From a virus (Duplodnaviria > Heunggongvirae > Uroviricota > Caudoviricetes), in IMG/VR virus record IMGVR_UViG_3300045988_146577: a stretch of DNA of 64,000 nucleotides; one strand, written 5' to 3'. This document shows, in pieces, positions 1-63,460 of the stretch (the first letter of the stretch is position 1; every line of letters begins with the position of its first letter). The notes beneath the pieces are model-generated. The model saw only the letters and a program-made list of their open reading frames with translations, was not told the DNA's origin and made no database searches. The position numbers and the translations under genes are program-made.

Positions 1-1042
1 TGTCCATTTCGTACTTTAGCCGCTCAACATAAACCCTGTTCTCAGAAGCAGGTGGTGTGTATCCAAACTCTTTTGTGGTAAGACGTTTACGCAGCCCTGC
101 AACAGCCAGTTTCATCAGCGTTGCAGGTTCGTCGTCTGCCATCTTGGGCAGTGCTGGTGGCAATTCATGCCAGCGCCATGTGCAGGCATCGATAATGGAG
201 TCCTGCGTTGTTGAGGCCATTGCAGCTGTTACCGGCACATCCATGCGAACGGAGAAGGCTTTAAGCGCCTCAAGGAGATGGCGACGACCATTGATGGCGT
301 TATCTCGCTGGTGGGGGATACGCAGACGATGCGGCTGGTCGATTTTTATGTTGTTCGTAACCATGTGCGCAATGTCTTTAATGTCTGCATCGTCGATCGA
401 TTCGTAATAAGCGGGATAGAACGCTACTGGCTCTATTTTCAGTGCGCTGGCTACTTTCATCGCTCGGACGTTAATCTGGTCGTAGAATGGGGTAGGGTGC
501 GGATAAACCACGCTATAGAAGTTGTCTTTCCCGCCCGCTGTAATCAGTGAGCTTATGATTTTTGCAAAATCGTTGCGTTGGAACACGCTACCGATGTCGG
601 AAGTGAGCAGGATGATGTTGCCTTTGGCATATGTAGAAACCAACTGTTCGAGCGAGAGACGCGGTACAAAGTAGAACTGTTCTCGTGTGTTGGCCACCGT
701 CATTAGTTCGCAGATGTCGCGATATCCTTGCTCATTTTTAATTAGAGCGGTAAACGAGTAGTTACGTCCCCGCTCTAATGATTCCATACATCTCATAGAT
801 TCTTTAGCAAGTTTAGCCCGGTGCTCGTATGTGGGATCATCAACGATATTTAGTTTCACACCACAAATAACCGCCATGTCGTCACCAGCGGCACGTTGTA
901 GTGGAATAACACTCGCAATATTCATGCTATCTGCTGAAATTACAGCGGTGTAGCCAGCTTCTCTGGCAATCTTCACCGCGTTTTCTGCTTTTAGAGCCGA
1001 CTCCCCAAGTGAGAAGTCAGTTCGAACCATCAGTGCTTTCAT
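1..1042 (-). CDS. DnaE-type DNA polymerase III alpha-like protein, N-terminal PHP-domain part (partial; continues past left edge)
   Basis: Hand translation from ATG at 1042 reads MKALMVRTDFSLGES...AVISADS...GVKLNIV... with no stop seen down to position 1; pattern resembles the PHP domain at the N-terminus of DnaE. Absent from ORF track, presumably because it runs off the window. Confidence 0.45.
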   Translation of the reverse strand, partial: MKALMVRTDFSLGESALKAENAVKIAREAGYTAVISADSMNIASVIPLQRAAGDDMAVICGVKLNIVDDPTYEHRAKLAKESMRCMESLERGRNYSFTALIKNEQGYRDICELMTVANTREQFYFVPRLSLEQLVSTYAKGNIILLTSDIGSVFQRNDFAKIISSLITAGGKDNFYSVVYPHPTPFYDQINVRAMKVASALKIEPVAFYPAYYESIDDADIKDIAHMVTNNIKIDQPHRLRIPHQRDNAINGRRHLLEALKAFSVRMDVPVTAAMASTTQDSIIDACTWRWHELPPALPKMADDEPATLMKLAVAGLRKRLTTKEFGYTPPASENRVYVERLKYEMD

Positions 1043-1222
1043 GTGTTTTTACCTTTATGGTTTTTTTGATTTTGTCATTGGGGAAGCCTACGAACTTCCC
1101 ATACATCGAAATCGCAACTTCTTTTGCTGATTGGTGACAATCGGGCTTGTCTGGACATACCAGACAAGCCTTACCAGTTTCAGAAGCAGCGATAAGAGAG
1201 CCGAAACATCCTTTACGCACGA

Positions 1223-2458
1223 TCAACCAAATATTTTTTGAACAACTTCACGAGCCGCTTGTGCAGAAGCTGAAGGGAGTTTGTTAATGAAAGAACGCTC
1301 AATACCTGTCACAAAGTCGCCTCGCATCATTCCAATCTTGGCCGACAACAAAAGTTCACGAGGGCCAATTGGCTGACTGATAAGGTGTTCTTCGTATCCA
1401 TCGCGAACGATACCGGCAAACTTAACCATCTTTTCTGCGTATTCATCCACGATACCGGCATTTATCAACATGTTGATCTCTGCCTCTTTGCTCATGTATT
1501 TCACATTCGAAACGATGCCAAAACGCGAAAAGTTCGCGGCGTTCTGGATGTTTGTACCCTGGTACAAGCCGGTTTCATCACCAGATCCGTTCGTGTTGCC
1601 AGTGCCAATGAAAGCAAACCGTTCATGCGGAGTAATGCGACGCCATTCTGGAGTCGCCTCTTTGATGACTAACGCTTCACCTTCCAGCACTGGCTGATAC
1701 ACGCCAAGAATTTGTGGAAACGCAAAGTCGTATTCATCCGCGAGGTAAACCCAGCCATGCTTCATTGCGAGCGCAAGCAAGCCAGGCTCGAAATACGTAG
1801 AGCCATCACGCGCCAGAATTTGCCCCGTAACATGTGCCTCTTCCATTGATGCTGTATGTTGGGCACGGATCAACGGACGATTGAGCAAAGCACATAGTTG
1901 TGTAGGCAATGACGATTTGCCTGTTCCTGCATGACCCCACAAATAGCCAGGTATGCCAAGTTCAAGCATCATGAAAATGTCTTTGATCAGTTCGAAGTCG
2001 CCATATACGTAGCCCTTCTTCACTTCTGGAACGAACTCTGGAAACGGCGTATTGACGTTGACGCTAACCATGAGCGGCGTCCCACGTTTTGTTCCGAGTT
2101 CTTTCACCGTTACATTTAGCAGTTCGTGAGCTGCGACCAGATCTGTCTTGTACTCAACTGTGCCTGTGTAGCCTGGGCTACTGGTCACGCCAGATGATTT
2201 GGCCATTTCGCTTTTTTGCTCGGCACGTTTAGCTTGAATTGCATCAAGTGCCTTTTTCGATAGCGTTGGCTCATCTGGAAACTGTGTTGTGTACATTTTC
2301 AGTACGGTGTCAGGATCGGCATCTTTTACTGACTCAGGAATGCCCTCGCAATTACCATTGGCAACATGGGACTTAAAATAGTGAAATGATTTTCCGCACC
2401 ACTTGCAAACAAGGTAATCAGAAGGATTTTTTTCATTTTGCAGTGCAGTAGTAGTCAT
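1223..2458 (-). CDS. AAA+ ATPase (MoxR/CobS-like) with N-terminal Cys-rich motif
   Basis: Walker A GHAGTGKSS, Walker B-like VYLADEYD, N-terminal CKWCGKSFHYF...C motif; 411 aa ORF. Confidence 0.75.
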   Translation of the reverse strand: MTTTALQNEKNPSDYLVCKWCGKSFHYFKSHVANGNCEGIPESVKDADPDTVLKMYTTQFPDEPTLSKKALDAIQAKRAEQKSEMAKSSGVTSSPGYTGTVEYKTDLVAAHELLNVTVKELGTKRGTPLMVSVNVNTPFPEFVPEVKKGYVYGDFELIKDIFMMLELGIPGYLWGHAGTGKSSLPTQLCALLNRPLIRAQHTASMEEAHVTGQILARDGSTYFEPGLLALAMKHGWVYLADEYDFAFPQILGVYQPVLEGEALVIKEATPEWRRITPHERFAFIGTGNTNGSGDETGLYQGTNIQNAANFSRFGIVSNVKYMSKEAEINMLINAGIVDEYAEKMVKFAGIVRDGYEEHLISQPIGPRELLLSAKIGMMRGDFVTGIERSFINKLPSASAQAAREVVQKIFG

Positions 2459-2553
2459 GCGTTTTTCCTTTGTTTTCTAATGAGCGTTCAACTTCTTATA
2501 TAAATATATCATTATCTATCGTAAGTGGTTACTTATCGTTAAGGCTGTTTTGT

Positions 2554-4662
2554 TCACTTTAAAATGATACGAGATAGTTCAGTAACTACAGATGAACCAA
2601 GACTATCAACGCTCGTTACCAGGGCATGATTTGCGTAAAATCTCTCCGGTGCATCAGTCATGATGCCAATTGCCATCAAATCAATGTCAGTCTGCGTTTC
2701 AATTTGCTTCGCAACCGAACGCAAATGAGCGTCAAAACCTCTCCCAACAGCCCACGGCTCGCCATCGCTCAGAACAAGCATGATCTTCCTGTCCTCCATG
2801 CGACCGGAAAATAACGATGCAAGGCTGGCTATGCTTTCACCATCCACGTTATTAAGAAGTGGGAATGTGTAGCCTACGCACCCCATACGTGAGCGAACTT
2901 CGCGAGAATTTGCTTTTTCATTCCAATTTTTGATGATAGGTAGCATTAAAGATTCAAAGCGAGAGAACTCATATTTGATAGCCTTAAGTTCTCCTGCTGC
3001 CATATGACTGCCAAATGTAGTGAAGCCGGTGATAATGTTGGGAACATTTATTCGATCAAGTGCATCGGCGATGGTATATGCACTTGCAAGAGCTAGTTTT
3101 ATCGTTTCGCCACTCATTGAACCCGATAAATCAATCACTTGTTGAACACAGGCGTTAACGGCTTTAGATTCTTCTTTTTTACGAAACACGCGATCATCAT
3201 TCATTGTTAATCTGTAGATACTTGAACCATGAATGCGCCCCCGACGCTGGCCAGGTATAAACTGAACTCTGTTTCTGCTTGCTATTGCACGTTCCAGGTC
3301 TTTTGCCAGCGTCGACGAAACACCTGACGAAAGGTGCTTTTCAATATATTTGTCGAAGAGTTGGTTGCCTTCAGGAACGATGCGATAACGGCTGATTGGA
3401 TATCCACCTAAATCAATATCGGAGAATGTTTTAATAAGCCGTTTGATATGGGCTTCTGCCTGATCAATCGAGCCGATGAAGTCGTATGAGCGATTGTATG
3501 GCCTGTATTCGCTTTTCGAGCTTTCTGTTAACTCGCTTTTAATCGTTTCGGATAGCGCATCTTCTGTCATGCCTCCGACTTCATCTTCCATGCTATCCAA
3601 CTCCTCTAAAGCCTCTTCCAGACTCATTTTTGACGGAGTTGGAATGTCTGAAGAGCCGTCTTCTGTCGTTTTTCTTTTTTCGTGGTCAGCGGTTAATGAT
3701 TCTGACGCCGCGTTATCAGAAGCATCAGAATCTGATACCGCTTTATCATTTTCTGTATCATCGAATATTGTTTCTGATGATTCAGGATTATCTGAATCAT
3801 CACTGTCGTTATTATCATGTTTGTGCTTACTATGTGACTCTGATTTAATAGATTTGTGATTATCTAACGATGAGGGTGTCTCATGATCTTCGTTGTCTTC
3901 ATTGTTTTCTCCAGAGGCATCCGTCTGGTCAGCGTCTGAAGGATCGGAAGTTTTTCCCGGAGCTGACTCCTTACCTTTGCTTTCACTTTCAGTGTCTTTG
4001 AGGATCTTAGCTATGGTCGCAGCCACCTTTACACAATCCTCGGTGCAAGACATGTTACGCACGGCCACATCGATACCATGTTCTTTTAATAATGAAATTG
4101 GTTTCTCAATGACAGGCCAATATTCATCCATGAAATCTACGAACGGTGCTTGGCCATCCCAGGCTCTTACAACCGGACAGAGAAAGAAGTTTAGAAAAAG
4201 CGCGCGCTGATCTTTGCCACAATAAGCAATAGCCTCTGAAGCCTTTGGTTTAAAGACTTTTTCGATTATAAGGCGCTGAGTTGCCATCAGATTACGTCTT
4301 GTTCCGTTAAAGACCTGACCCATTTTTCGCTCGATGAACACGTCTTCTAAGGCATTCCATAGCGACCAGGAAGGAACGCGTCCTTTTTCTCTCATTTTGT
4401 TGGACACACGAATATCGGTAAACAAAATGTGAGCAACCTCATGATCGAGAAATCCGCGCACAGCATTCATCAATGCCGGTGTTGCGTTATCCGGGATTGA
4501 TGGGATGTTTACGAGAATTGGCTCTCCATCATCGTTATAGCGTACATAAGCGTCGTCCCCTCGTTCTGCAACAGGGATGTTTTTACCTGAAAGGAGAGCG
4601 ACTACTCGTTTTACACTGTCACGGAAGTCCTGAACCTCTTTGATGGAACGTTTTTTAGACAT
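2554..4662 (-). CDS. von Willebrand factor A (vWA) domain protein with long acidic Ser/Asp/Glu-rich central region (CobT-like)
   Basis: C-terminal MIDAS-like motif VIDLSGSMSG; strongly acidic low-complexity middle; directly upstream of the AAA+ gene on same strand. Confidence 0.75.
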   Translation of the reverse strand: MSKKRSIKEVQDFRDSVKRVVALLSGKNIPVAERGDDAYVRYNDDGEPILVNIPSIPDNATPALMNAVRGFLDHEVAHILFTDIRVSNKMREKGRVPSWSLWNALEDVFIERKMGQVFNGTRRNLMATQRLIIEKVFKPKASEAIAYCGKDQRALFLNFFLCPVVRAWDGQAPFVDFMDEYWPVIEKPISLLKEHGIDVAVRNMSCTEDCVKVAATIAKILKDTESESKGKESAPGKTSDPSDADQTDASGENNEDNEDHETPSSLDNHKSIKSESHSKHKHDNNDSDDSDNPESSETIFDDTENDKAVSDSDASDNAASESLTADHEKRKTTEDGSSDIPTPSKMSLEEALEELDSMEDEVGGMTEDALSETIKSELTESSKSEYRPYNRSYDFIGSIDQAEAHIKRLIKTFSDIDLGGYPISRYRIVPEGNQLFDKYIEKHLSSGVSSTLAKDLERAIASRNRVQFIPGQRRGRIHGSSIYRLTMNDDRVFRKKEESKAVNACVQQVIDLSGSMSGETIKLALASAYTIADALDRINVPNIITGFTTFGSHMAAGELKAIKYEFSRFESLMLPIIKNWNEKANSREVRSRMGCVGYTFPLLNNVDGESIASLASLFSGRMEDRKIMLVLSDGEPWAVGRGFDAHLRSVAKQIETQTDIDLMAIGIMTDAPERFYANHALVTSVDSLGSSVVTELSRIILK

Positions 4663-4760
4663 GGCTAATCCTTTGTTATGAAAACAAATTATTTACTAGT
4701 GTGTTTAATGTAGCACTGCGCGAACAGGGAACTAAGCCATTCGCGCAGGGAGAAGAGGGG

Positions 4761-4973
4761 TTAACAGATTCTGACGGCTAAAGACCCGGAGCCGGTATTG
4801 AGAAGCGTGAAGCGTTTGTTGTTAAGTTCGAATATAAATCCAGTTGTGTCATTCACACCAACCTGAATCTGCTCATTCGGTAGATCGGTGAGGATGTCAG
4901 CTACACACTCATCAACTAATTTCTGTACGTGTCCGATCTCAAGAGCGATTAGGCTGGAAATAGTGGTGTTCAT
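4761..4973 (-). CDS. hypothetical small protein
   Basis: 70 aa ORF, no recognisable motif. Confidence 0.3.
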   Translation of the reverse strand: MNTTISSLIALEIGHVQKLVDECVADILTDLPNEQIQVGVNDTTGFIFELNNKRFTLLNTGSGSLAVRIC

Positions 4974-5224
4974 TCAATCAATCCATTCTAACTTATACTA
5001 TGGTAAGGAATACTACTAAAATTTATATCAATACTGAATACATTCATATCATATGCAAGTTGATTTTCTTACCTGTTTTGGGCTAATTTTTCTCCGTGCA
5101 ATGGCCTTTAACCGGTCTTTTAAGTGCCTATCGAAAAAAATGATAATAGCTTTACAACCCTAACCTTTGATGTAATATCGGTAAGCACTTACCAGAGAGA
5201 ATTGAACGCGCAAAGGTTGTAACC

Positions 5225-5611
5225 ATGTCTGATAACAAGATTGAATTTATAGAAAGTCGCTACGCTGCTTTTATCGCAGGGTTGATTGAATCCTCACCTA
5301 TGAGCCAGGCCCAGATAGCCAAAACAATTGGGTATAAAAACGCCAACAACCTTTCTTTAATTAAAAGCGGCAAAATTCCTTTGCCTATCGATAAGGTTCG
5401 TCCGCTGGCGCTGGCACTGGGCATTGAGCCAAGTCGTCTTATGATGATGGTGCTGGAAGAACGCCAACCCGAACTCGCAGCATTTTTATACAAAGAAGGC
5501 ACTGCTCCTCTTAACGAGGACGAAAAACAGGTTCTTGCTGCATATAACGAGCGATTCGGTAAAGAGAAAGGCGCATCACAAAAGGTTGTTGAGGCCATAA
5601 AGTCTCTATGA
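5225..5611 (+). CDS. HTH DNA-binding regulator (XRE-like), candidate repressor
   Basis: 128 aa; helix-turn-helix-like segment SQAQIAKTIGYKNANNLSLIKSGK; palindrome GGTAAGCACTTACC about 35 nt upstream. Confidence 0.55.
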   Translation: MSDNKIEFIESRYAAFIAGLIESSPMSQAQIAKTIGYKNANNLSLIKSGKIPLPIDKVRPLALALGIEPSRLMMMVLEERQPELAAFLYKEGTAPLNEDEKQVLAAYNERFGKEKGASQKVVEAIKSL

Positions 5612-6709
5612 AAAATTTACACGAATAAGCTCTGTTGATAGACGATCTCCCTTAAATTTGTGGTCAATTTCGTCTAAATCCGGTTGCTCTACGATTGATG
5701 CGATGTACGTCGAGAAACTTTCTAAGGCGTCTCGCATCTCGTCCATATAATCGTGCCGGTCGTAGACCCGATCTATCCCCTCAAGACTGTGGTTCATGAT
5801 TTTACGTGATACCTCCTGGCTTATGCCTAATGCTGGGAAGTAACTACGCGCAGTACGGCGCAAATCTCGGGGTGTAAATGGCTCAAGCTCCATCAGTTCT
5901 GGTCGTTCCAGAATACGACGTAATGCCTGGGCTATTGCCACTTTAGACATAGGAAGGTCTTTCCCGATTTTTTTATTCGAAGGCACGAGCCACTGGCTGT
6001 CTTTACCATATTCGAACAACTCTTCAATACAAGTGCGCATTAATGAGCTTAAAGGCAGAGAATGCTCACGGGCAGATTTGTTCCTCTTGCCTTGATTCCA
6101 AACCCCACGCTTAAGATTGAACTCACTTTTTTTAGCCCGCAGTACTTCGTCAGGTCGTCTTGCGGATACAAGACATAGCCTGGCCGCCCATTTTGTACCA
6201 GCACACACATTGAAGTAGTCCCATATATTCCAGAACACCCATACCTCTGCGTCAGTCAGCTTCCGCTCGCGGGGCGTGGGCTTTGCGCCACCGGCAACTT
6301 TGTTAAGTGACATATCGTTTAACGGTGACACGTCTATCATCCCCTGGAAGGCGCACCAGCTAAGGAACTGCTTCATCAGAGAGAAAACGCGGCGGCCCAT
6401 AACAATTTTGCCATCCAGTATTAGTGGGTTGACCAGTTGGTTCACCATGAACCTATTAATATCACTTACTTTTACATCGGCAATGTGCGGAAAAACATGT
6501 ATCAAAATACAATGAACAGCGATCTCTGGCCGACGTCTGGTTATGAGCAGAGATAAGCGAGTGAATAACATGAATGCGTCCGAGAATCTCATGTCATTGC
6601 TGACCTGGGAGATCATAACGGCCTGCATTTGAGATGCTCTTTCGAGATACTCTATCGCCTCTTTTGAGGTGTTCTCCGCAGCGCGTGCTCTGTCAAAGCT
6701 ATTTTTCAT
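5606..6709 (-). CDS. int: tyrosine recombinase / phage integrase
   Basis: 367 aa; C-terminal catalytic region with RDLRRTARS...HSLEGIDRVYDRHDY (R..H..R..Y pattern). Confidence 0.85.
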   Translation of the reverse strand: MKNSFDRARAAENTSKEAIEYLERASQMQAVMISQVSNDMRFSDAFMLFTRLSLLITRRRPEIAVHCILIHVFPHIADVKVSDINRFMVNQLVNPLILDGKIVMGRRVFSLMKQFLSWCAFQGMIDVSPLNDMSLNKVAGGAKPTPRERKLTDAEVWVFWNIWDYFNVCAGTKWAARLCLVSARRPDEVLRAKKSEFNLKRGVWNQGKRNKSAREHSLPLSSLMRTCIEELFEYGKDSQWLVPSNKKIGKDLPMSKVAIAQALRRILERPELMELEPFTPRDLRRTARSYFPALGISQEVSRKIMNHSLEGIDRVYDRHDYMDEMRDALESFSTYIASIVEQPDLDEIDHKFKGDRLSTELIRVNFS

Positions 6710-6725
6710 ATGACAATCACCGAGT

Positions 6726-6745
6726 TACGCCGATGTACTGTATAA
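6726..6745. promoter_or_regulatory. LexA (SOS) box-like site upstream of integrase
   Basis: TACTGTATAAGTAAACAGTA fits CTGT-N8-ACAG; 17-36 nt upstream of int start. Confidence 0.45.
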
Positions 6746-6889
6746 GTAAACAGTATATTAGGCATAGATTCTTATAGGATCAAGAGTAAAAGTAACTCAT
6801 TTTTACTAATGATTCCATACATAGTAGGTATGGAATCATTTTGACGTTGTTTTTTGAATTTTAAGGGAAATGGGAGTGAGTTTGGTGGG

Positions 6890-6916
6890 AATAAAAACGG
6901 CTCCTGTGAGCCGTTA
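6890..6916 (-). terminator. rho-independent terminator after glutaredoxin gene
   Basis: Hairpin ACGGCTCCTGTGAGCCGT followed by U-run on minus strand. Confidence 0.55.
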
Positions 6917-6919
6917 AAA

Positions 6920-7165
6920 TCAGAGGGTGCTGACGTATGCAGCCAGTTCTGTGTATCCGCCAATCGGCTGGCCATCGATCAGCACCTGGGGGATAGTCTC
7001 TACCGGTTTACCAACAATTTCACTTAGTTTTTCCTTGTCGATACCGGCAGTGGTGATGTCGATGTACTCATAATCACCGTAGCCATGTCCCTTTAGTTGC
7101 TTCGCCAGCTCGACCGCACGTTTGCAGTATGAGCAGTTATCTCGTCCGTAGATAGTGATCGTCAT
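6920..7165 (-). CDS. glutaredoxin-like protein
   Basis: 81 aa; CSYC active-site motif near N-terminus, glutaredoxin-like length and layout. Confidence 0.75.
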   Translation of the reverse strand: MTITIYGRDNCSYCKRAVELAKQLKGHGYGDYEYIDITTAGIDKEKLSEIVGKPVETIPQVLIDGQPIGGYTELAAYVSTL

Positions 7166-7512
7166 TGCTTTGCCTCATGCCACTTTTGCTTCAGGAGATA
7201 GCCTTCCAGGGGCCAGATTTGATCGATAGCATCTTTTCGAGCGTACTCGCGACCAACATCAAAGTTGAAGATTTCTGGTCTTACGCACGCAGATTTTCCC
7301 GTTACGGTATATCCATTTTTGAGAACCATAACGCAGAACGTTAAGAGTTTTAACGACTCATGACCTTTGTCGATATCTGTTTTTGAATTGTAAACAGAGA
7401 TGAAGTTATCCCCGTGGCTGGCATCATATGCAGTGAAATAATGTTCACTTTGAATGAGTTGTTCAATGTGTTCAGGGGTGACTTTTAGTGGTGTGTTATC
7501 TTTGCTGGTCAT
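7162..7512 (-). CDS. hypothetical protein
   Basis: 116 aa ORF overlapping glutaredoxin start by 4 nt (coupled). Confidence 0.5.
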   Translation of the reverse strand: MTSKDNTPLKVTPEHIEQLIQSEHYFTAYDASHGDNFISVYNSKTDIDKGHESLKLLTFCVMVLKNGYTVTGKSACVRPEIFNFDVGREYARKDAIDQIWPLEGYLLKQKWHEAKQ

Positions 7513-7555
7513 TATTTCTTCCTACAAAGTTCGTAGACTTGACTCTTTCAGTTGC

Positions 7556-7585
7556 AAAAAAGGGGCCGAAGCCCCTTTGAATTTT
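7556..7585 (-). terminator. rho-independent terminator (possibly bidirectional) after tRNA cluster
   Basis: GGGGCCGAAGCCCC hairpin flanked by A6 on one side and TTTGAATTTT on the other. Confidence 0.6.
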
Positions 7586-7732
7586 GCGCTGAAAAAAGTG
7601 TTGCTAGGATGTTAGCAAGCTATGGTTAAGAACGTCTGCCGTAATTGTCTATCACAGCGTTGAGCGGTCTGGTTTATGTTAGCGGAGTCTTAATCTGGGT
7701 GATTAAAAGGCCAAACCGCTCAACGCTGTGTC

Positions 7733-7819
7733 TGGCGGAGAGTAATGGAATCGAACCATCATCGCTTGCGCAATGGGACGGTTTTCAAGACCGCTTGAGC
7801 ACCATGCTCCCTACTCTCC
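7733..7819 (-). tRNA. tRNA-Ser (anticodon UGA), about 87 nt
   Basis: Acceptor stem GGAGAGT/ACTCTCC, discriminator G, encoded CCA, anticodon loop CUUGAAA, long variable arm; folded by eye. Confidence 0.6.
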
Positions 7820-8215: not shown

Positions 8216-8219
8216 AATT

Positions 8220-8306: not shown

Positions 8307-8311
8307 TAAAT

Positions 8312-52976: not shown

Positions 52977-53008
52977 CATTTCATATTTACCCCCTATCTA
53001 CTAATTCT

Positions 53009-55417: not shown

Positions 55418-55426
55418 GATATTGAT

Positions 55427-55726: not shown

Positions 55727-56009
55727 ATTCCTATAAGGGTAATAACCGGCTAAGTCCGGTTATTATTTTACATGCCATTCGTTTAACACTCATTCAATTC
55801 TCCCCCGTATAAATATATATAAGGTCAAAAGCCGGAATTTATTATTTATTTAGGGAACACCTTCGACGATCTCGCTTTTATTTCTAGGGCTTTCATCCCT
55901 GCAAAAAACTTAAAAAAATACTTGCAATCTTTTTTCGCGTGTCGATAATTGGACTCATCGAAAGCGAAATTGCTAACGATAATTAAATTTTATACTAAGG
56001 ATTGAAATC

Positions 56010-56660
56010 ATGACTAACATTATCATTTCTAAAAAATCCATCATTGAAGCTGCTGCCATTGTATCCGACGAGCTGCGCGAAAAAGCAGATCTGGCAACTC
56101 AAACATATAACGAACATTATAAAAATGGTACGCACACAAAAGCAGACAAAGCAAATATGCAAGCTGCGACCACCAAACTTGCTTACTTCATCAACAACGT
56201 CGTAAACGCAGTAGAAGACGAAAAATTGTGCTCTGTTTTCTACTATGCGATCAAAGCAAGCAAACAAGCGCCAGAAGTATTTTTCCGTGATGCAATGACT
56301 AATAGTTATTCTCTGGAAAAACTGGTTTATCTGGTTAAATCCATTAAAGCTGGAAAGTGTGTTTATTCCGTCGCTGATATGTCCGGATCTCGTGTATTCG
56401 CATTAATCGATATGATTAACGACGAGATCGAGACGTTCACAAATGGCGCTGTTTTCGATTTAATGAATGAAGCGAAAAAAGCCAACGAAATAAAATTAGA
56501 CGCAGGATACACTCAAGCCAACCAGCTTATCAATCTTTGCGAACGTCTTGGACTTGTTGAGAAAGTCAAAGGAATGGGAAGCGCAAAAGCTGGTACGCAG
56601 CAATATCGCTTTATTAAAAATGATTTCTATAACTATCTGGCTGATGCTTTCAAAGCGTAA
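56010..56660 (+). CDS. hypothetical protein
   Basis: 216 aa ORF followed by terminator at 56674. Confidence 0.5.
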   Translation: MTNIIISKKSIIEAAAIVSDELREKADLATQTYNEHYKNGTHTKADKANMQAATTKLAYFINNVVNAVEDEKLCSVFYYAIKASKQAPEVFFRDAMTNSYSLEKLVYLVKSIKAGKCVYSVADMSGSRVFALIDMINDEIETFTNGAVFDLMNEAKKANEIKLDAGYTQANQLINLCERLGLVEKVKGMGSAKAGTQQYRFIKNDFYNYLADAFKA

Positions 56661-56673
56661 TTAATGGAATCTG

Positions 56674-56694
56674 GCGCCCACTATGGGCGCTTTT
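56674..56694 (+). terminator. rho-independent terminator
   Basis: GCGCCCACTATGGGCGC + TTTT. Confidence 0.7.
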
Positions 56695-56707
56695 AAGGAG
56701 CTTAATC

Positions 56708-56938
56708 ATGTTTATTCTTATCGCTGGCGTTAACGTGCGCAATGAATATTTTGTTAATCGCATCGCTGGGATCGCTGGTTACGCTGGGCGCGCAGTCGAG
56801 CTTATAGATGAAACGACGCGCAAAATTGACTTATTGAGCGACCAGGAGCGAAAAAAAGCAGACGTGAATGACGCTGATATATTTTTAATGTTAAAAGCGT
56901 TTGTAGAAATGGGATTTGAAATCAGTTTACATAAATAA
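56708..56938 (+). CDS. hypothetical small protein
   Basis: 76 aa ORF followed by identical terminator hairpin. Confidence 0.45.
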   Translation: MFILIAGVNVRNEYFVNRIAGIAGYAGRAVELIDETTRKIDLLSDQERKKADVNDADIFLMLKAFVEMGFEISLHK

Positions 56939-56944
56939 AATCGA

Positions 56945-56967
56945 GCGCCCACTATGGGCGCTTTTTT
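56945..56967 (+). terminator. rho-independent terminator (identical hairpin to 56674)
   Basis: GCGCCCACTATGGGCGC + TTTTTT. Confidence 0.7.
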
Positions 56968-56991
56968 CGTTTCCAATACTTCCACCATAAC

Positions 56992-57017
56992 GCGCCAATG
57001 ATGGCGCTTTTTTTATT
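56992..57017 (+). terminator. rho-independent terminator
   Basis: GCGCCAATGATGGCGC + TTTTTTT. Confidence 0.6.
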
Positions 57018-57424
57018 GTCTTTGACTCAAGCCAACAACATAAAAATAAGCGCCAAAATAACGCCATAGACGCGCTTTTATATCCTTACCAGTACATACC
57101 CATTACTTAGCGCATTAACGCGCTTAAATCGCGTTATATTGCGTTATGGTGTATGGTTAATCATTGGCTTTTATTCTTGCTATGTGATCCGCGTTTAATT
57201 GTCGGCGCGGATCGGCATTTTGTTTTGTTCCGTATCCGCTCGCGTATTATGTGCGCGTGATTTTTCACATAATCACACCACTTAATCACATATGTGATTA
57301 CGCTACGAAAGAAATCTGGATGTCTCAGGCGACGAAAGTCATCATAATTTTCCCCGCTCACCTGTCCGACAACCGCTGGTTGGATTCCACCAGCTTCCCG
57401 ATGTTTTTTCTATATAAAGGCGAA

Positions 57425-57545
57425 TGCAGCCGTTTCCCGAAAAAATCCTGGCCGTTTCCCGTCGGCTCATGAATACGTTCCTCGCCGTTTCTGAAAATTT
57501 CCCTGCGGCAGCTGGTGGCTATATAGAAAGGGCCGTTTCTGGCCC
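57425..57545. repeat. iteron cluster 1 (4 copies of GCCGTTTCC/TG-like motif)
   Basis: AGCCGTTTCCCG, GGCCGTTTCCCG, CGCCGTTTCTG, GGCCGTTTCTGG spaced 20-50 nt. Confidence 0.6.
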
Positions 57546-57554
57546 TCTTCTCAG

Positions 57555-58037
57555 TTACACGCCATCAAGGATGTGGATGCGGTTGCTTGCGTATACATTC
57601 AGCATAAAGTTAGCGCAAAACAGTTTCCATGTATCAACGCCAGCGGTATACGTAATGTTTTTGCATTTAATCGCATTGTTGGCGATCCGCATCCCCTGCG
57701 ATACTGCTTCATCGTCGGAAAATTTGAACGACGATTGAGTTTTAATCCAGACAGAAATCTGCGTAGCGAACTCAATCAGCTTGGACTGGCAGAATCGCCC
57801 GGAGCGCACCGGAAAGACGAACGTTCCGAATCCAGAATTTACCACATACGCTTTCTCAAATACCCGCGAGTAACGACGATTGCCAATGATGTCGCGTGCA
57901 ATAATGCATTTTTCTTGTGCTGACAGTTCTACCGTCTCATTGTCGCGCCATGCACCAAGTACTCGTTTTTCAATGTCAGAGAACGTTACAGCGATATTGC
58001 CATGTGCGGGTGCGTTTACAGTAGCGATAAAATTCAT
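57555..58037 (-). CDS. hypothetical protein
   Basis: 160 aa ORF; motif-A promoter-operator immediately upstream. Confidence 0.5.
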   Translation of the reverse strand: MNFIATVNAPAHGNIAVTFSDIEKRVLGAWRDNETVELSAQEKCIIARDIIGNRRYSRVFEKAYVVNSGFGTFVFPVRSGRFCQSKLIEFATQISVWIKTQSSFKFSDDEAVSQGMRIANNAIKCKNITYTAGVDTWKLFCANFMLNVYASNRIHILDGV

Positions 58038-58054
58038 GATTAATTCCTTATCGT

Positions 58055-58092
58055 AAATAACAAATTGTTTTCTTGTTGGTGTTAATTATCGT
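58055..58092 (-). promoter_or_regulatory. promoter-operator motif A (GATAAT -10-like box plus AACAAATTGTT palindrome)
   Basis: minus-strand CGATAATTAACACCAACAAGAAAACAATTTGTT just upstream of start at 58037. Confidence 0.55.
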
Positions 58093-58241
58093 TGTACGAA
58101 TAAGGCGTCAAAGTGGAAAGTTGCGGTAGCCGGACGGGAACAGGTGGGTTTGTCGGTTGCCTGGAGGTAAGAGGTTGGTGTTTTTAGCCTGCGGGAAACA
58201 GGATGGTCATTTAAGGCCACCAGCATTGGTGGCCTTACTCT

Positions 58242-58528
58242 TTAGTGGAGCAGACCGATGTCGATGGTATCCCCTGAATCATCCACACGGATCATCAGCA
58301 TGGCGAAGGCGTTTAGTGGATAGCTTGCGTGCCATTCAGGGAAGCGGTCATCTCGCATGAAGTCGGCAATGTCGTAAACGCAGCCCTCAAAGTGGAAGAA
58401 TCGCGTGCTTACCTGCTCGTCATATTCCACATGATCCATTTCTTGCTGTTCTGTTTCCGGCAAGTCCAGCCATGATTCAAGGAATACATTTTGTGCTTTA
58501 GGGGTAATGGTGAAATCAGTCATGAGCA
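58242..58528 (-). CDS. small acidic protein
   Basis: Start re-assigned to ATG near 58528 after SD GAGGAT (track start 58655 lies upstream of the promoter motif); about 95 aa. Confidence 0.5.
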
Positions 58529-58542
58529 TATCCTCACTGCGT

Positions 58543-58575
58543 AAACATATTGTTTTCTTGTTGGTGTAATTATCG
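58543..58575 (-). promoter_or_regulatory. promoter-operator motif A
   Basis: minus-strand TGCGATAATTACACCAACAAGAAAACAATATGTTT (extended -10-like TGnGATAAT). Confidence 0.55.
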
Positions 58576-58858
58576 CAGTGTAGATAAGGCATAAAAGAAG
58601 TTAATACAGGCTGAATACACAAGAAAGGTTCTGGAAGTTGATAGCCAGGTTTCAAACTAACCTTCGGTTATTAAAAGTCATTTAAGACCACCAATGCTGG
58701 TGGCCTTAATAATTATCGCCCGATTACGCTAAGGATCTTTTCCTCAACTGATTTGTTGTTGCGACTAAACTGCCTTGCGTATCTGATGACAGAAGAGGCG
58801 TTTTGCTTTCTGACCATCTCGACTCTTTCCTTCAGGCGTTTCTTGAAATCGCCCATAT

Positions 58859-59233
58859 TTACCACCAGGCGCAGAAGGTCAGTCTGTTATTGTGAAAGTC
58901 GTGGTTCTTAATCAGATCTTCCACAAGCTCTTTCAACTCCCCCACATCATGCCAGTAACCTTCATCGTACTCCTGACTGCCGAAGAAAAAACCTTCCCGG
59001 GTAGGCAAGTACTCTTCGCAATTACTTTCGTTTATGTGCATCAAATGAGCCTTCAGAAAACAAATGTCATTCATCGTTAATTCTAAAAGCTCACAATTTT
59101 CGACTTCACCTACGTTGCGCTCCATCCACCCAACGAGCGCATTGAACTTACGGAAGTAAGCAACCTGCTTTCTGGATGCCTCGTTATTCAGATCGTTTTT
59201 AGGCTGTGTCTCGATATAGATATCAAGTCCCAT
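58859..59233 (-). CDS. hypothetical protein
   Basis: Start re-assigned to ATG near 59233 after SD AAGGAAA; about 124 aa. Confidence 0.45.
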   Translation of the reverse strand: MGLDIYIETQPKNDLNNEASRKQVAYFRKFNALVGWMERNVGEVENCELLELTMNDICFLKAHLMHINESNCEEYLPTREGFFFGSQEYDEGYWHDVGELKELVEDLIKNHDFHNNRLTFCAWW

Positions 59234-59310
59234 GATGGTTTCCTTATTAAGTTGCTTCAGTGAAATCATTTTCACAAATCAGATAAGGCAGAAAACAAAT
59301 TGTTATCGGG

Positions 59311-59339
59311 CATAATAAAATGGCGCGGTTTGCGCGCCA
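59311..59339 (-). terminator. rho-independent terminator
   Basis: GGCGCG/CGCGCC hairpin followed by U-run on minus strand, just after the stop at 59351. Confidence 0.5.
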
Positions 59340-59350
59340 TTTAAAGAGGA

Positions 59351-59746
59351 TTAAGCGAATACGCTTTCAGGGATTAAGGTGTCGGCAGGAATGCCAGAGG
59401 TAATGCGCAGACCGTACTGGCCAATCCAGGTGGTGCTGGTGTTCAGGCTGGAGGCGAATACGGTGTTAACCATATTCATCATGGTTTCAAACACCTCTTC
59501 ATCAACCTGGCGGAAGTAGTTCTCGATTTTCAGCAGCAGAGGGTCAGTTGCATCGAGAATGGACTGGTATTGAGTCGCGTACTCGCCGCCGGAGGCATCA
59601 CCTTTACGCACGATCGTACTGGCCTGGACTTCGGCACCAGTTTCGGTGTTGTACGTAACAACGGTGATTTTTGCCACATTCTTACCTTCGGCGGTTTCAG
59701 AGGCATAGTAAACATCAACTGTCAGTTTTTCGCGTTTAACGGTCAT
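59351..59746 (-). CDS. hypothetical protein
   Basis: Start re-assigned to ATG near 59746 after SD GGAGAG; about 131 aa; TAAGTATGTACTTA palindrome upstream. Confidence 0.5.
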   Translation of the reverse strand: MTVKREKLTVDVYYASETAEGKNVAKITVVTYNTETGAEVQASTIVRKGDASGGEYATQYQSILDATDPLLLKIENYFRQVDEEVFETMMNMVNTVFASSLNTSTTWIGQYGLRITSGIPADTLIPESVFA

Positions 59747-59810
59747 TTCACTCTCCGTAGTGTTTTGGTTATTTTTATATTCTATGATCGTAAGTATGTA
59801 CTTACAATAC

Positions 59811-59837
59811 AAAAAAGCCCCGTAAGGATGGCGGGGC
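59811..59837 (-). terminator. rho-independent terminator
   Basis: GCCCCGCCATCCTTACGGGGC hairpin + U6 on minus strand. Confidence 0.65.
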
Positions 59838-59872
59838 TGTCGTACTGTCGACTAATTACCACTTGCACATTA

Positions 59873-60187
59873 TCAGGCTATTGCCATCACTGATGCTCTC
59901 TGAATTTCTTGCTGGGCCACGCGGTTAACTTCCATCAAAGCCAGTTCGAGCTGATGTTCCGGCCACATTCTTTGAAATGCCATCCAGCCTTTTCCACGCT
60001 GGCGACGAACATTCATTACATAACGAGTAAAGGTGTTTTTATCGAAAGACACCGCTGTTTCACGGAACAGACGAATAGAGGTTCCATTGGCAACGATGTC
60101 CAGCAAAGTTAATTGAGCAACCAGCGCAGGCTTCTCTTTTCTCTTCTGGTCTTTGTCCAGACCAAGAACCAATGATTTTTTCATCAC
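59873..60187 (-). CDS. small basic protein, possible DNA-binding regulator
   Basis: Start re-assigned to ATG near 60187 after SD GGAG; about 104 aa, Lys/Arg-rich. Confidence 0.45.
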   Translation of the reverse strand: MMKKSLVLGLDKDQKRKEKPALVAQLTLLDIVANGTSIRLFRETAVSFDKNTFTRYVMNVRRQRGKGWMAFQRMWPEHQLELALMEVNRVAQQEIQRASVMAIA

Positions 60188-60195
60188 AACTCCGT

Positions 60196-60211
60196 AAACA
60201 ACTTGTTTTCT
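60196..60211 (-). promoter_or_regulatory. operator motif A
   Basis: AAACAACTTGTTTTCT just upstream of start at 60187. Confidence 0.5.
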
Positions 60212-60337
60212 CAATGGCGTAAATAATACCAGTAAGAAAACGGCTACAAAGCATATTGATCAGGTGCATGAGCGATATGCAGGTTCTTCCCTGCGGCTAT
60301 AGAGAAATTAAGCCAGCAATGCTGGCTTTGGTTGGGA

Positions 60338-60667
60338 TTACTCGAATACTTCAAGAAACTCCTGAACGTCCCAATGCTGGACGAGGTGAAGATAGACCTT
60401 AGAAATCACGTCATTTTCGCTATCGCATGTGAAGTAGTACTTCTGGCTGCGGTTGTATGTGTCCACACAAAATTCGCTCATATCCATAAAGTCAGCATCT
60501 TCACCCATGTCGCAAATCATCAAAGCAGGTGCGTCATCACGAGTCATCAGCTCAAGCACCCACCGCGAATTGATCAGAGTGGAAGACCAACCTTCCAGCT
60601 CATAGAACTGGTCAAACTCTTTTTGAGTCAATTTCTTGATTTGGTTGATGTCGATATGTGCAAACAT
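60338..60667 (-). CDS. small acidic protein
   Basis: Start re-assigned to ATG near 60667 after SD AAGGA; about 109 aa; Asp/Glu-rich. Confidence 0.5.
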   Translation of the reverse strand: MFAHIDINQIKKLTQKEFDQFYELEGWSSTLINSRWVLELMTRDDAPALMICDMGEDADFMDMSEFCVDTYNRSQKYYFTCDSENDVISKVYLHLVQHWDVQEFLEVFE

Positions 60668-60679
60668 AAAGCAATCCTT

Positions 60680-60712
60680 AAACAACATGTTTTCTTGTTG
60701 GTGTTATTATCG
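60680..60712 (-). promoter_or_regulatory. promoter-operator motif A
   Basis: minus-strand TGCGATAATAACACCAACAAGAAAACATGTTGTTT directly upstream of SD and ATG. Confidence 0.55.
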
Positions 60713-60994
60713 CAATAACGCACAGGCGAAAAAGGATTTTATTCCGGTGAATGTGGTTTTGGCAGTGAGTTTTCAGGTTCAGTACCGAGTACACTTTTTA
60801 CATTATTCTGATTTAGTGGCCGAAGGTGGCTGGTGGGCAGAATAATCATCTCCCCGAAAACCTACTGAAATCGATTGTGACCCGTTGGCTGTCTGGCACA
60901 ATTACGCTGTAACTGGGCATTCAGAGGGAATCCAGCGGTAAGTAAGTTCGCCTGCACGTGAGCGCCTCTCTTCTTCCCGCACATTACAGGTGGG

Positions 60995-61185
60995 TAGCCG
61001 CAACTCTCCCTCTCGCTATACCGGTACGCCGCCGTTCCTGAACCGGCATCGAGCCTTTTCCCGAAATCCACACAGGCAACTCGACCGTTTCCCTGAAAAC
61101 CTCCAGCCGTTCCCCGAAGGCAACCCAGCCGTTTCTGTAGCGGGATGCAGCCTTTTCCCTGTATGGACCGAAGGCTGACCGTAGG
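60995..61185. repeat. iteron cluster 2 (6 copies of CCGTTTCC-like motif)
   Basis: CGCCGTTCCTG, AGCCTTTTCCCG, GACCGTTTCCCTG, AGCCGTTCCCCG, AGCCGTTTCTG, AGCCTTTTCCCTG at ~20-30 nt spacing. Confidence 0.6.
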
Positions 61186-61225
61186 GGTGTTACGGGGGGG
61201 TAAAATCAGGAGTTGAATAAATACG

Positions 61226-61248
61226 AAAAAGGAGGCGACACCCCTCCT
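61226..61248 (-). terminator. terminator-like hairpin ending the transcript of the GT-skewed region
   Basis: AGGAGG/CCTCCT stem with 7-nt loop followed by U5 on minus strand. Confidence 0.4.
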
Positions 61249-61249
61249 T

Positions 61250-62110
61250 CCCTCCCCACTTATACATACCTGTCTTGTTCGCTATACATGTTGTGTTTTC
61301 TTCGTGTTTTATCTGTCTCAACCTCTCTATAGGCGTTAATGCTCACTCCTTCCAGAACGTTCTATACGGCGACTATTTCTGTTGGTGAATTGGGTGTGTT
61401 GTTTTCTCTGTCGGTGTATGTAGTTTCATTAGTTTTGCGGTGGTTCTTCTATGGGGTGTTCTCGTCGTTTTGGTGATTGTTCTTCTCCGTGTATGGAGTA
61501 ATGACAGGTGGGCGATTGCTTTCGTTATTGTGTTTGAGTTGTTTGTCTGGAGTGTGAAAGGCTTTTGTAGTTATTCGTGTATTGGGTAATGGCGTTTCCC
61601 GTGATTGTTATGTTTCGTGTCTTTTGGGATTGAGAGAAACCTTGCGGTTACAGGCTTCGTTGGGGTTTCAGTGATTCTGATGTTTCTTCGCTGTTTGGGT
61701 AATGGCGTGTCGTGAGTATCGCGCGTATGGAAGTTTCGAATTGCCTGTGAAAGTTAGGTTGGTTGTCCGGTAGCCTGGGAAGAAGAGGTGGGTCTTTTCG
61801 GTAGCCTGCCATAAAGAGGTTGGTTGTTTTGGGAATGGCATATGTGTTATTTAGTTGTTTTGTTATGCCTGAAAATAAGTTGTTTATATGGTTATGTAAC
61901 GCAACGGGAACGATTTTGAGCGTGTGTTTTTGTTGGTAGTGTGTTGGGTCGTCTGTGGTGAAAATTGGACGCTGTGGCGCTGTCTGCTGCGTAGAATTAC
62001 GGGTATAAGCTGTGATGTGTGGAAACGTCAATTTTTTAGACCAAATCGGGTGAAAGCGTTGATGTTTCGTTGATCTGTTATTCAGTTGTTTTCTTGATTG
62101 TATAAACAAC
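61250..62110 (-). ncRNA. candidate long non-coding transcript from GT-skewed (plus strand) region; transcript would be CA-rich and G-poor
   Basis: ~860 bp with strong G+T skew on plus strand, internal short repeats, no credible ORF; promoter-like motif near 62080-62110 and terminator at 61226-61248, both minus-strand. Confidence 0.3.
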
Positions 62111-62219
62111 TATAACTTATTGATATTTAAGGATGTGATTGCGGGTATGGAAGGGGAGTAGTGGCGATCAACGGATTCTTATAGAAAAGAATCAAATTGT
62201 GACCGCCATTATCAATGTT

Positions 62220-62954
62220 TTACTTAGTTTTGTTTAGCAGAGAGAGAATTTCATCACTAATTTCACTCGCCTGTTTGATAGCCAATGCAGTTACCTCTTC
62301 TATGGTTGGTGACTGTTGATGCTCATGTTTGGTTTCAGTTATGACAATGTGTTCTTCACCTGAATTTGCGCATAGTGCCGCATTGACTATAAGGTTTGAG
62401 TAAGAATTTAGCAGAGCACTGTTGATAAACGCTTTCACGGTATTACTGTCTGCACCAAATACATCTTTTCTGACCGCTTCAGCCTCACAGCGAACCCCTG
62501 CAGCAACATCGTGAAGAACATGTATGGCCTTGGAGCTTGTTTGTTCACAGTACTCAATCATTATTGTCGAATTGTTCTGTTCAACAAATGATCTGATGCC
62601 TGACGATTCACCCATAGCATCGAAGGCAGCGTGACTCGCACTAGTAGAGATATCTTCATAGAGTTCTTCATCGCTATCTTTTTCTTCAGGTGTCGAGGTG
62701 TCTTCATCGTCGTAATAGATATTGCCTTTAATCAGTGTTTTGGATACTTGATATAAACAATAAGAGACAAGATTTAAGCATTGGATTTTAGCTGTATTGT
62801 CCTTTGTCGCCTCGCTCTTCAGTTCTTTCGCTTCTTCAGTAAGGCTGTTGATAAGACTTTGTATTTTTTCCAACGCGTTAGGTGCACACTCCGCGTTGTC
62901 CATAAAGAATTTATAACCAGTTCCAGGGATTTCTAAACTTTTCAACTTTTTCAT
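62220..62954 (-). CDS. hypothetical protein
   Basis: 244 aa ORF, acidic. Confidence 0.5.
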   Translation of the reverse strand: MKKLKSLEIPGTGYKFFMDNAECAPNALEKIQSLINSLTEEAKELKSEATKDNTAKIQCLNLVSYCLYQVSKTLIKGNIYYDDEDTSTPEEKDSDEELYEDISTSASHAAFDAMGESSGIRSFVEQNNSTIMIEYCEQTSSKAIHVLHDVAAGVRCEAEAVRKDVFGADSNTVKAFINSALLNSYSNLIVNAALCANSGEEHIVITETKHEHQQSPTIEEVTALAIKQASEISDEILSLLNKTK

Positions 62955-62999
62955 TTCTTTGATAATCCTAAAAACAAACTACCAATGCTTTAATATCTG

Positions 63000-63296
63000 T
63001 TACCAGTTCCAGCACTCAAGCCCTTCAACGACCGGTGCACCACAATCAAAATGTACAGAGTCAAAGCCTACATCAAGTACTTTCTGAATGTTAGCAATCG
63101 CGCCTTCGGATATACCATATCGACGCAAGTCGTCTTTCCAGACATCATCCTGTAACCCGGCGTGGACAATACAACCGCCATCAATTTGTGAAACCCAATC
63201 CAGCTCATTGCTTGCGATCATGAATCGGCGAGCATCTTCCTCTGATGTATGAGATGAGCTGATCAATGCCACCTGGTAGGCTTGGGTAATGTTCAA
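63000..63296 (-). CDS. hypothetical protein
   Basis: Start re-assigned to ATG near 63296 after SD GGAGTGG; about 98 aa; two motif-A copies upstream. Confidence 0.5.
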   Translation of the reverse strand: MNITQAYQVALISSSHTSEEDARRFMIASNELDWVSQIDGGCIVHAGLQDDVWKDDLRRYGISEGAIANIQKVLDVGFDSVHFDCGAPVVEGLECWNW

Positions 63297-63310
63297 CATT
63301 TCAACCACTC

Positions 63311-63376
63311 CAAAACAAGTTGTTTTCTTATGTGGTTTATTATCTCCATCAACAAAAGGCAGAAAACAAATTGTTT
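63311..63376 (-). promoter_or_regulatory. two copies of operator motif A
   Basis: AAAACAAGTTGTTTTCTT and AGAAAACAAATTGTTTT. Confidence 0.5.
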
Positions 63377-63460
63377 TAGGTACTGTGTAAATCAGAAGGG
63401 ATTGTGTCTATATGAAAATGCCCGGCGTGTTGCCGGGCATTGCGAAGAGAGGTTGTTTAA

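Follow-up and report, generated by a model that had tools for sequence, protein, structure and literature searches.

Here, we analyze a 64,000-nt stretch of viral DNA (IMG/VR record IMGVR_UViG_3300045988_146577; hereafter the window, meaning this stretch at its full length), the right end of which lies within metG, the gene for methionyl-tRNA synthetase (MetRS). A first-pass annotation had pictured a mosaic element abutting chromosomal metG. Our comparisons make it very probable that the window is part of a ~108.5 kb E. coli phage-plasmid of the SSU5 supergroup (pSLy3 group, Cyrano/pLF82 type), and that this element is free rather than integrated. The copy of metG in the window is most likely the element's own captured gene and not the edge of a chromosome. 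The type of element is already known, and phage-plasmid-borne metG is already published.

Nucleotide comparison with Escherichia phage Cyrano gives 98–99% identity and the same gene order across the whole window. The two parts 1–25,000 and 39,001–64,000 match Cyrano at ~98%. Block by block, window 1–47,817 is colinear with Cyrano save for three small replacements, and 47,818–64,000 aligns as two pieces. The same two parts are 95–97% identical to Escherichia phages CMS-2020a and PhiR41_1, and Salmonella phage SSU5 is colinear with the window at 80–81%. Backbone homology and synteny with Cyrano and SSU5 place the window in the SSU5 supergroup, a described class made up of the groups SSU5_pHCM2, pKpn, pSLy3 and pMT1 (PMC7969092), whose Escherichia/Shigella clades have been surveyed (bioRxiv 10.1101/2025.09.12.675607). 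This bears out the earlier remark that the gene content resembles large phage-plasmids. None of the records in the annotated collections is 100% identical to the window, which is a mosaic of known variants.

Cyrano is the plasmid pLF82 of E. coli LF82, an SSU5-like phage-plasmid present at ~5.5 copies per cell, which produces siphovirus virions and is induced by ciprofloxacin; experimental proof of virion production exists for Cyrano only (PMC9928086). Like the window, Cyrano/pLF82 (OV696614 / NC_011917) carries metG at the same place. It differs in that the window has an extra tRNA-Tyr and a 0.4 kb insert in the tRNA array, another cassette at 16,252–17,480, small indels, and a metG allele closest to those of plasmids from MARGA_4 and strain 54214, not to that of Cyrano. 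The Salmonella type members SSU5 and pHCM2 have in common with the window the replication cluster and head module (80–81% nt) and a conserved region free of open reading frames (ORFs) beside the cargo hotspot; the metG-apbC cargo was not detected in SSU5, where homology within the right-hand 25 kb ends at window position 47,818. According to the summaries in PMC12452169 and bioRxiv 10.1101/2025.09.12.675607 of work by Tam et al. (medRxiv 10.1101/2024.10.27.24316207), pWPMR2 of Shigella sonnei is, like the window, an Escherichia/Shigella SSU5-group phage-plasmid with an additional metG. One Shigella sonnei plasmid matches window 60,001–64,000 at 97.4%. Phage P1 is alike in that it is temperate and persists at low copy number as a plasmid, equipped with partition and addiction functions and with Cre, a tyrosine recombinase that resolves multimers (PMC7969092), but it belongs to an unrelated phage-plasmid group with different virion and replication genes.

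The plasmid state is evident at the level of the family. The virion module (window 40,001–48,000) occurs in 260 of the 5,426 closed E. coli genomes, at 426 places, and all 426 are on plasmids. For the window itself, the evidence is indirect. A single contig of the gene index encodes exactly the window's tail-fibre protein: NODE_54 of ENA ERZ1741973, 108,543 bp long. Its alignment with window 11,281–35,306 spans 24,026 nt and is 100.000% identical, with positions shifted throughout by exactly 32,000; therefore, the window corresponds to NODE_54 positions 32,001–96,000. Its length is within 0.15% of that of Cyrano (108,379 bp), which points to NODE_54 being one full phage-plasmid circle. A second contig (L102; 96,445 bp) is 100% identical to window 1–14,662 and continues to the left, through dnaE, a csp gene, gp32, a 5′–3′ exonuclease and an intein-containing RecA gene. 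The left flank is therefore also phage-plasmid DNA. With regard to recA in this region, many relatives encode a 779-amino-acid (aa) RecA split by an intein with a LAGLIDADG endonuclease domain, and others an uninterrupted RecA of 357 aa.

The right end and the metG-apbC block

The features at the right end of the window are as follows.

60700–62220, no strand: ORF-free region with iteron-like repeat families, conserved across the SSU5 supergroup
62220–63299, minus strand: a 244 aa protein (phrog_20845) and a DUF5983 protein, the final backbone genes before the cargo, also present in relatives
63413–63441, minus strand: hairpin followed by a U-run, probable metG terminator (fold −19.1 kcal/mol, z = −5.2)
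63461–64000, minus strand: 3′ part of metG, the last 179 codons and the stop, encoding the C-terminal tRNA-binding domain of MetRS (NCBIfam metG_C_term)

In an alignment with the mrp-metG locus of K-12, homology to the E. coli chromosome begins at window position 63,460, one base past the metG stop, and not at 63380–63440 as first proposed. It consists of a single 3.3 kb block, comprising metG and apbC and ending 4 nt inside the apbC 3′ end. Over 160 circular plasmids of 105–120 kb are colinear with window 60,001–64,000, which they cover to 100% at 96–97.7% identity. In two of the relatives, p1448_4 and MARGA_4, the order is DUF5983, metG (2,034 nt, 677 aa), a divergent apbC, an S24 peptidase, and further phage-plasmid genes, which include nrdAB, thyA, dfrA51 and lastly RepB. 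The block is therefore internal to circular plasmids in these closed relatives, contrary to the idea that it marks the beginning of the chromosome.

The hairpin at 63,413–63,441 is specific to the phage-plasmids and, in a comparison of flanks, is not found downstream of chromosomal metG. A simple terminator scan does not call this GC-rich hairpin; because a U-run lies behind it, we read it as the probable metG terminator. The supposed junction at 63,380–63,440 is most probably this terminator and a spacer, which border the cargo block within the circular element. The segment had also been expected to recur as a direct repeat. Within the window, however, the interval 63,300–63,470 recurs only as 20 nt of a palindromic motif (see below), and no attachment-site (att)-like repeat is seen. 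In four relatives, the DNA beyond the ORF-free region varies: an E. coli plasmid has IS1 there, a Citrobacter relative has ydfZ/LprI, and DUF262 with a type I restriction-modification system is found in Klebsiella. Since relatives carry differing cargo at this site, metG-apbC sits in a cargo hotspot.

Over its 540 nt, the metG allele of the window is 100% identical to the copies that strains MARGA_4 and 54214 carry on plasmids of ~110 kb, and the best 25 matches are all plasmids. By contrast, every one of 5,423 E. coli chromosomal copies is 90–95% identical. The possibility that this metG is the host's own gene is ruled out by these allele identities. A host-distinct allele in a phage-plasmid backbone is what we observe, for the 3′ 540 nt that the window holds. 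The collection of closed E. coli genomes contains ~221 plasmid copies of metG. MetRS of the MARGA_4 type, to which the window's C-terminus belongs, stands in a phage-plasmid context in 10 of the 10 places shown, of 486 index blocks.

Plasmid metG is 94% identical to that of K-12 at the nucleotide level and 98.5% at the amino-acid level. Synonymous divergence (dS) is 0.29 and nonsynonymous divergence (dN) 0.007. The ratio, dN/dS = 0.025, implies that plasmid metG is an intact gene under purifying selection. Consistent with this, the relatives encode an intact MetRS of 677 aa, and the tRNA_bind domain is intact in the window's fragment. Because metG is cargo, lysogens are merodiploid for MetRS. 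In S. sonnei, phage-plasmid metG has been linked to improved survival of antimicrobials, according to PMC12452169, which cites Tam et al. Perturbation of metG is a known determinant of persistence (PMC11004401).

As to the origin of the block, apbC is more diverged than metG, sharing 83% identity with E. coli mrp; its product has 366 aa, and the annotated K-12 protein has 369 aa. The gene is about as far from Escherichia as from Citrobacter, and for the intergenic region between metG and apbC, Citrobacter gives the better alignment. Among the matches listed in a scan of species-representative genomes, a sample outside which several Escherichia species fall, E. coli/Escherichia is nearest for metG, and no chromosome exceeds 94% for metG or 83% for apbC. 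This suggests that the cargo block may be an old capture from an enterobacterium other than E. coli, with metG later homogenised towards Escherichia alleles. In CP170191.1, labelled Enterobacter hormaechei B56, the metG-mrp statistics equal those of K-12 in every comparison and mrp is 100% identical to that of K-12; this record is probably mislabelled, or E. coli sequence.

Chromosomal joins at metG

Several observations weigh against a free plasmid. Even in an integrated copy, the 3′ 540 nt of metG that the window holds would be of the phage-plasmid type. It is in relatives, and not in this very molecule, that the replication initiator and the plasmid state have been observed, and the role of the recombinase (below) is one that we infer. 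Moreover, contig Ga0169214_10146 of JGI 3300029074 is 100.000% identical to window 44,896–64,000 and continues past metG into chromosomal genes: mrp (369 aa), yehEDCBA, rcnB/A/R and thiM/D. Its metG is a hybrid, K-12-type at nt 6–828 and phage-plasmid-type from nt 955 onward, with the switch inside nt 829–954, a tract of 126 nt that is identical in both alleles. Three more assemblies, with contigs of 218 kb (L099), 424 kb and 711 kb, also join phage-plasmid to chromosome at metG. In the first of these, an independent draft, the allele switch falls in the same interval. Thus, the view that element and chromosome meet at metG does not hold in closed relatives, yet some assemblies do join there, via exact shared stretches.

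The distribution of the hybrid alleles is mixed. The hybrid MetRS protein is found on five contigs, representing two joins, one purely chromosomal locus and two purely phage-plasmid loci; NODE_54 is not among them. Of the four joining assemblies, L127 encodes the same hybrid protein with a near-identical pattern of single-nucleotide polymorphisms (SNPs), and in L104 metG is disrupted. On closed plasmids, the MARGA_4 and p1448_4 alleles are themselves mosaic, being 90–93% identical at nt 1401–1700 and 98–100% elsewhere. Two ENA metagenome contigs (L129 and L130) have a K-12-type tract at nt 108–828 between phage-plasmid-type metG ends, again in a phage-plasmid context. These alleles indicate that phage-plasmid and host copies of metG recombine.

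One way to account for the joins is that the element integrated by RecA-dependent, Campbell-type recombination between the two metG copies. The right end of the window would then lead to chromosomal mrp-yeh, and a second hybrid metG would lie at the other end. The contig identical to window 44,896–64,000 runs as this predicts, through a hybrid metG; the switch interval recurs independently in the 218 kb contig; the 424 kb and 711 kb contigs supply additional joins; and the mosaic alleles, together with the K-12-type tract in the two metagenome contigs, show that the copies can exchange. Against this, none of the 260 closed E. coli carriers has a chromosomal element, and none of the 5,423 chromosomes has a phage-plasmid-type metG 3′ end. 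The reciprocal junction, phage-plasmid 5′ metG with the chromosomal 3′ flank, is never seen. NODE_54 is exactly phage-plasmid-sized and has no hybrid MetRS. Finally, metG is where the sequence stops in two further, independent assemblies of this element, at ~nt 1,024 in a 96 kb contig and at ~nt 982 in a 40 kb JGI contig, as would be expected of an unresolved repeat. We therefore regard integration of this particular molecule as unlikely. More generally, stable chromosomal integration would seem to be rare or absent, since 0 of 260 closed carriers show it.

It is also conceivable that the window derives from an assembly chimera, in which a free phage-plasmid was joined to a chromosome over the shared metG repeat. 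The two alleles have in common exact stretches of 126–128 nt or more, the contig ends inside metG elsewhere suggest that the shared stretch may be longer in this strain, and chromosome-joined contigs are known for an identical element. The window, however, contains no chromosome-specific DNA and is colinear over its whole extent with closed circular plasmids, and the 108,543 bp contig amounts to one phage-plasmid circle. Such a chimera is accordingly less likely still. A classical integrase-mediated prophage with attR at 63,380–63,440 can be set aside almost entirely: a tyrosine recombinase is present and host-like DNA starts near that position, but the recombinase is 56.7 kb away, no att-like repeat was found (the sole recurrence is the promoter-proximal palindrome), and host homology is limited to two genes in a segment that is colinear within closed circular plasmids. 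Chromosomal DNA past the junction is not seen in closed relatives, the exceptions being draft and metagenome contigs with hybrid metG, and the window shows neither an att-like repeat at the junction nor an integrase close to it.

A free phage-plasmid therefore remains by far the better account of the window. The joins at metG are either repeat-induced misassemblies or rare events of homologous recombination. In our reading, short-read and metagenome assemblies break or are falsely joined at the exact tracts that the two metG copies share. We also raise a speculative idea, which we consider doubtful though less so than integration of the present molecule: metG may act as a portable homology arm, allowing allele exchange with the chromosome and reversible, RecA-dependent integration of the ~108 kb element. 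We raise it because closed plasmids carry alleles that are mosaic when compared with one another or with K-12, because the two metagenome contigs carry a K-12-type tract in phage-plasmid context, and because four independent assemblies join at metG, with both of those analyzed by SNPs switching in the same interval.

Phage-plasmid DNA is occasionally met on large contigs in other settings. Of the index blocks with backbone proteins, ~0.3–0.4% are on contigs longer than 200 kb. In CP043541.1 (5.57 Mb), phage-plasmid DNA lies beside ychF and remnants of an IS91-like transposase, with a break at the equivalent of window position ~9,191. In CASDMQ010000024.1 (2.72 Mb), the neighbours of a 5′-truncated metG are zinT and a fragment of a tRNA-Ser gene, in a sequence that includes an N. 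Both cases look associated with insertion sequences (IS) and not metG-mediated; the embeddings may be real insertions or assembly artefacts.

Genes and life cycle of the element

Gene calls are based on Pfam and NCBIfam scans of the window ORFs, and tRNAs were called with ARAGORN. These confirm the gene content listed in the first-pass annotation: lambda-like tail genes, ParA, a toxin-antitoxin pair, the start of DnaE, primase, helicase, ligase, glutaredoxin and tRNAs. Nearly all long ORFs are on the minus strand. The genes for replication, maintenance and tRNAs are as follows.

2–1042, minus strand: 5′ part of dnaE (Pol III alpha, PHP domain; Pfam PHP, 8.7e-14); the gene runs on to the left of the window
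1223–4662, minus strand: AAA_5 ATPase (CobS-like) and CobT-like VWA protein pair (Pfam AAA_5, CobT, CobT_C)
5225–5611, plus strand: helix-turn-helix (HTH) regulator, homologue of Cyrano CYRAN_45, a putative repressor (weak Pfam HTH_19; Cyrano annotation)
5606–6709, minus strand: tyrosine recombinase ("integrase"; Pfam Phage_integrase, 2.9e-10)
6920–7165, minus strand: glutaredoxin (Pfam Glutaredoxin; annotation in relatives)
7162–7512, minus strand: Gp49-like protein (annotation in relatives)
7733–8386, minus strand: tRNA array Ser(tga), Thr(tgt), Tyr(gta), Asn(gtt) (ARAGORN; Rfam for three of four)
9976–15288, minus strand: replication cluster of ligase, two unknown ORFs, primase and helicase (Pfam; PHROGs)
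9976–11298, minus strand: ATP-dependent DNA ligase (Pfam DNA_ligase_A_M)
12685–13938, minus strand: primase (Pfam DNAG_N/Toprim_2)
13948–15288, minus strand: DnaB-like helicase (Pfam DnaB_C)
16252–17480, plus strand: variable cargo slot with a 357 aa ORF (phrog_22329, function unknown; comparison with relatives, PHROGs)
17483–17842, minus strand: 119 aa ORF downstream of the ParA/MipZ-like gene
17842–18510, minus strand: ParA/MipZ-like partition ATPase (Pfam MipZ, AAA_31; NCBIfam ParA_partition)
18790–19627, plus strand: TacA/KacA-type antitoxin and GNAT acetyltransferase toxin, an addiction module (Pfam TacA1, 8.6e-26; GNAT)
48156–52695: ABC-type ATPases and two ParB-like proteins (minus strand) and a DEAD/UvsW-like helicase (plus strand) (Pfam ABC_tran, ParB_N twice, DEAD/ResIII/Helicase_C)

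The complete dnaE (1172 aa) is present in the 96,445 bp contig, which is 100% identical to the window where the two overlap, and the AAA_5/CobT pair is annotated likewise in SSU5, Cyrano and p1448_4. The tRNA array, with four genes and a 0.3 kb spacer against three genes in Cyrano, p1448_4 and MARGA_4, is a variant common to at least 66 E. coli plasmids; its tRNA-Ser receives no Rfam call at the gathering threshold. Maintenance functions comprise both partition (the ParA/MipZ-like ATPase and two ParB_N proteins) and addiction (TacA with a GNAT toxin, annotated in Cyrano as KacT/antitoxin). The slot at 16252–17480, between the DnaB operon and parA, is an exchange hotspot, with other genes in Cyrano and a GIY-YIG protein in MARGA_4. 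The replication initiator RepB lies beyond the window and is found in the complete relative MARGA_4; four sampled relatives are all typed IncFIB.

The tyrosine recombinase occupies the same place in all relatives and lies ~56.7 kb from metG, in agreement with the earlier observation that the integrase is more than 56 kb from that gene. By analogy, it most likely serves plasmid biology.

The genes of the virion, lysis and accessory regions are as follows.

19796–21090, minus strand: lysis cassette of holin, endolysin and spanin (Cyrano annotation of the colinear, 98.9%-identical segment)
21281–25306, minus strand: mosaic tail fibre (Pfam Gp34_trimer, a T4 gp34-type trimerisation domain)
25400–37274, minus strand: lambda-type tail tip and tape measure protein (TMP): J, I, K, L, M, TMP (Pfam)
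37261–47683, minus strand: major tail protein, Ig-like decoration protein, major capsid protein, DUF6651 scaffold-like protein, portal, and large (TerL) and small (TerS) terminase subunits
52698–57000, no strand: low-GC (38–40%) accessory island (composition)
54896–55417, plus strand: FljA-like repressor of phase-1 flagellin, inside the accessory island (Pfam Flag1_repress, 3.5e-80)

Pfam and NCBIfam matches establish a virion and packaging module, and the lysis genes, which have no Pfam match, are named solely via homology to Cyrano. In the tail, the Pfam families are Phage_Tail_Tip, FNIII-A_GpJ, Phage-tail_3, NLPC_P60+JAB, Phage_tail_L, Phage_min_tail and Tape_meas_lam_C. The gene between K and J has no Pfam match and is named I from its position and the Cyrano annotation. 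Assignments in the head, connector, tail-tube and terminase region are based on NCBIfam (major capsid protein, terminase), Pfam Big_2 and DUF6651, the Cyrano annotation, and 81% nt identity to SSU5. The tail fibre is another exchange hotspot. Its high-GC (53%) 3′ part is akin to lambdoid side tail fibres, and this part is 95% identical at the nucleotide level to phage phi458.

Every accessory ORF tested falls in some PHROG family. Among these ORFs no PADLOC defence system was found, only generic helicase and ATPase matches. The FljA-like gene is seen in every related phage-plasmid locus listed, and its product might silence host flagellin in lysogens.

Together, these genes are compatible with the following life cycle. 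In lysogeny, the element would be kept as a low-copy circular plasmid by a RepB/IncFIB-type initiator, ParA/ParB-type partition and a TacAT/KacAT-type toxin-antitoxin. The tyrosine recombinase would have a plasmid role, such as multimer resolution or some other site-specific reaction, rather than a part in chromosomal integration, as the analogy with Cre suggests. On induction, the DNA would be replicated with the element's own DnaE, DnaB-like helicase, primase, ligase and UvsW-like helicase; a siphovirus with a lambda-type tail tip would then be assembled, and the cell lysed. The 3.3 kb metG-apbC block would stem from the chromosome of an enterobacterium and be maintained by strong purifying selection.

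Recurrent motifs and implications

The 1.5 kb ORF-free region (~60,700–62,220) is G+T-rich and unannotated in relatives, yet over 800 SSU5-type plasmids, from Klebsiella, Enterobacter, Salmonella (pHCM2) and Citrobacter, have it at 66–72% nt identity. It contains approximately six repeats of the CCNTTTCCC type and one tandem 31-mer. TTCTCCGTGTATGGAGTAATGGC is present in two copies within 3 mismatches, and in up to five copies in relatives. Comparison of the region with Rfam gave no match. The 23 nt repeat is absent from the remainder of the 99.5 kb of MARGA_4 that was scanned, the repB region included, and it therefore does not represent RepB iterons. The region is a candidate for a second origin, a partition site or another cis-acting site.

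A palindrome, AAAACAANTTGTTTT, occurs in 13 copies in the window (with up to 2 mismatches), against 0.83 expected, at positions 4681, 15307, 18545, 47723, 47748, 58057, 58542, 59292, 60195, 60679, 61872, 63312 and 63363. Nine of the sites, with spacing measured by hand, lie 10–40 nt upstream of minus-strand start codons. The genes behind them encode the CobT-like protein, the DnaB-like helicase, ParA, TerS and several small ORFs. The motif is kept in aligned SSU5 relatives, and may be an operator or a promoter element through which a phage-plasmid regulon is controlled.

Phage-plasmids with host housekeeping genes can be taken for integrated prophages, and the case of metG illustrates how. Cargo of this kind creates repeat-induced plasmid-chromosome joins in short-read and metagenome assemblies. 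The matter is also of clinical relevance, in that SSU5-type phage-plasmids with metG are tied both to survival of antimicrobials and to lineages of Shigella sonnei that are multidrug-resistant (MDR). If the joins between metG and the chromosome are true, they would mean homology-driven switching between plasmid and chromosomal states. And if metG does serve as a homology arm, it would provide a recombinase-independent route between plasmid and prophage, by which alleles of an essential gene, metG, would be moved.

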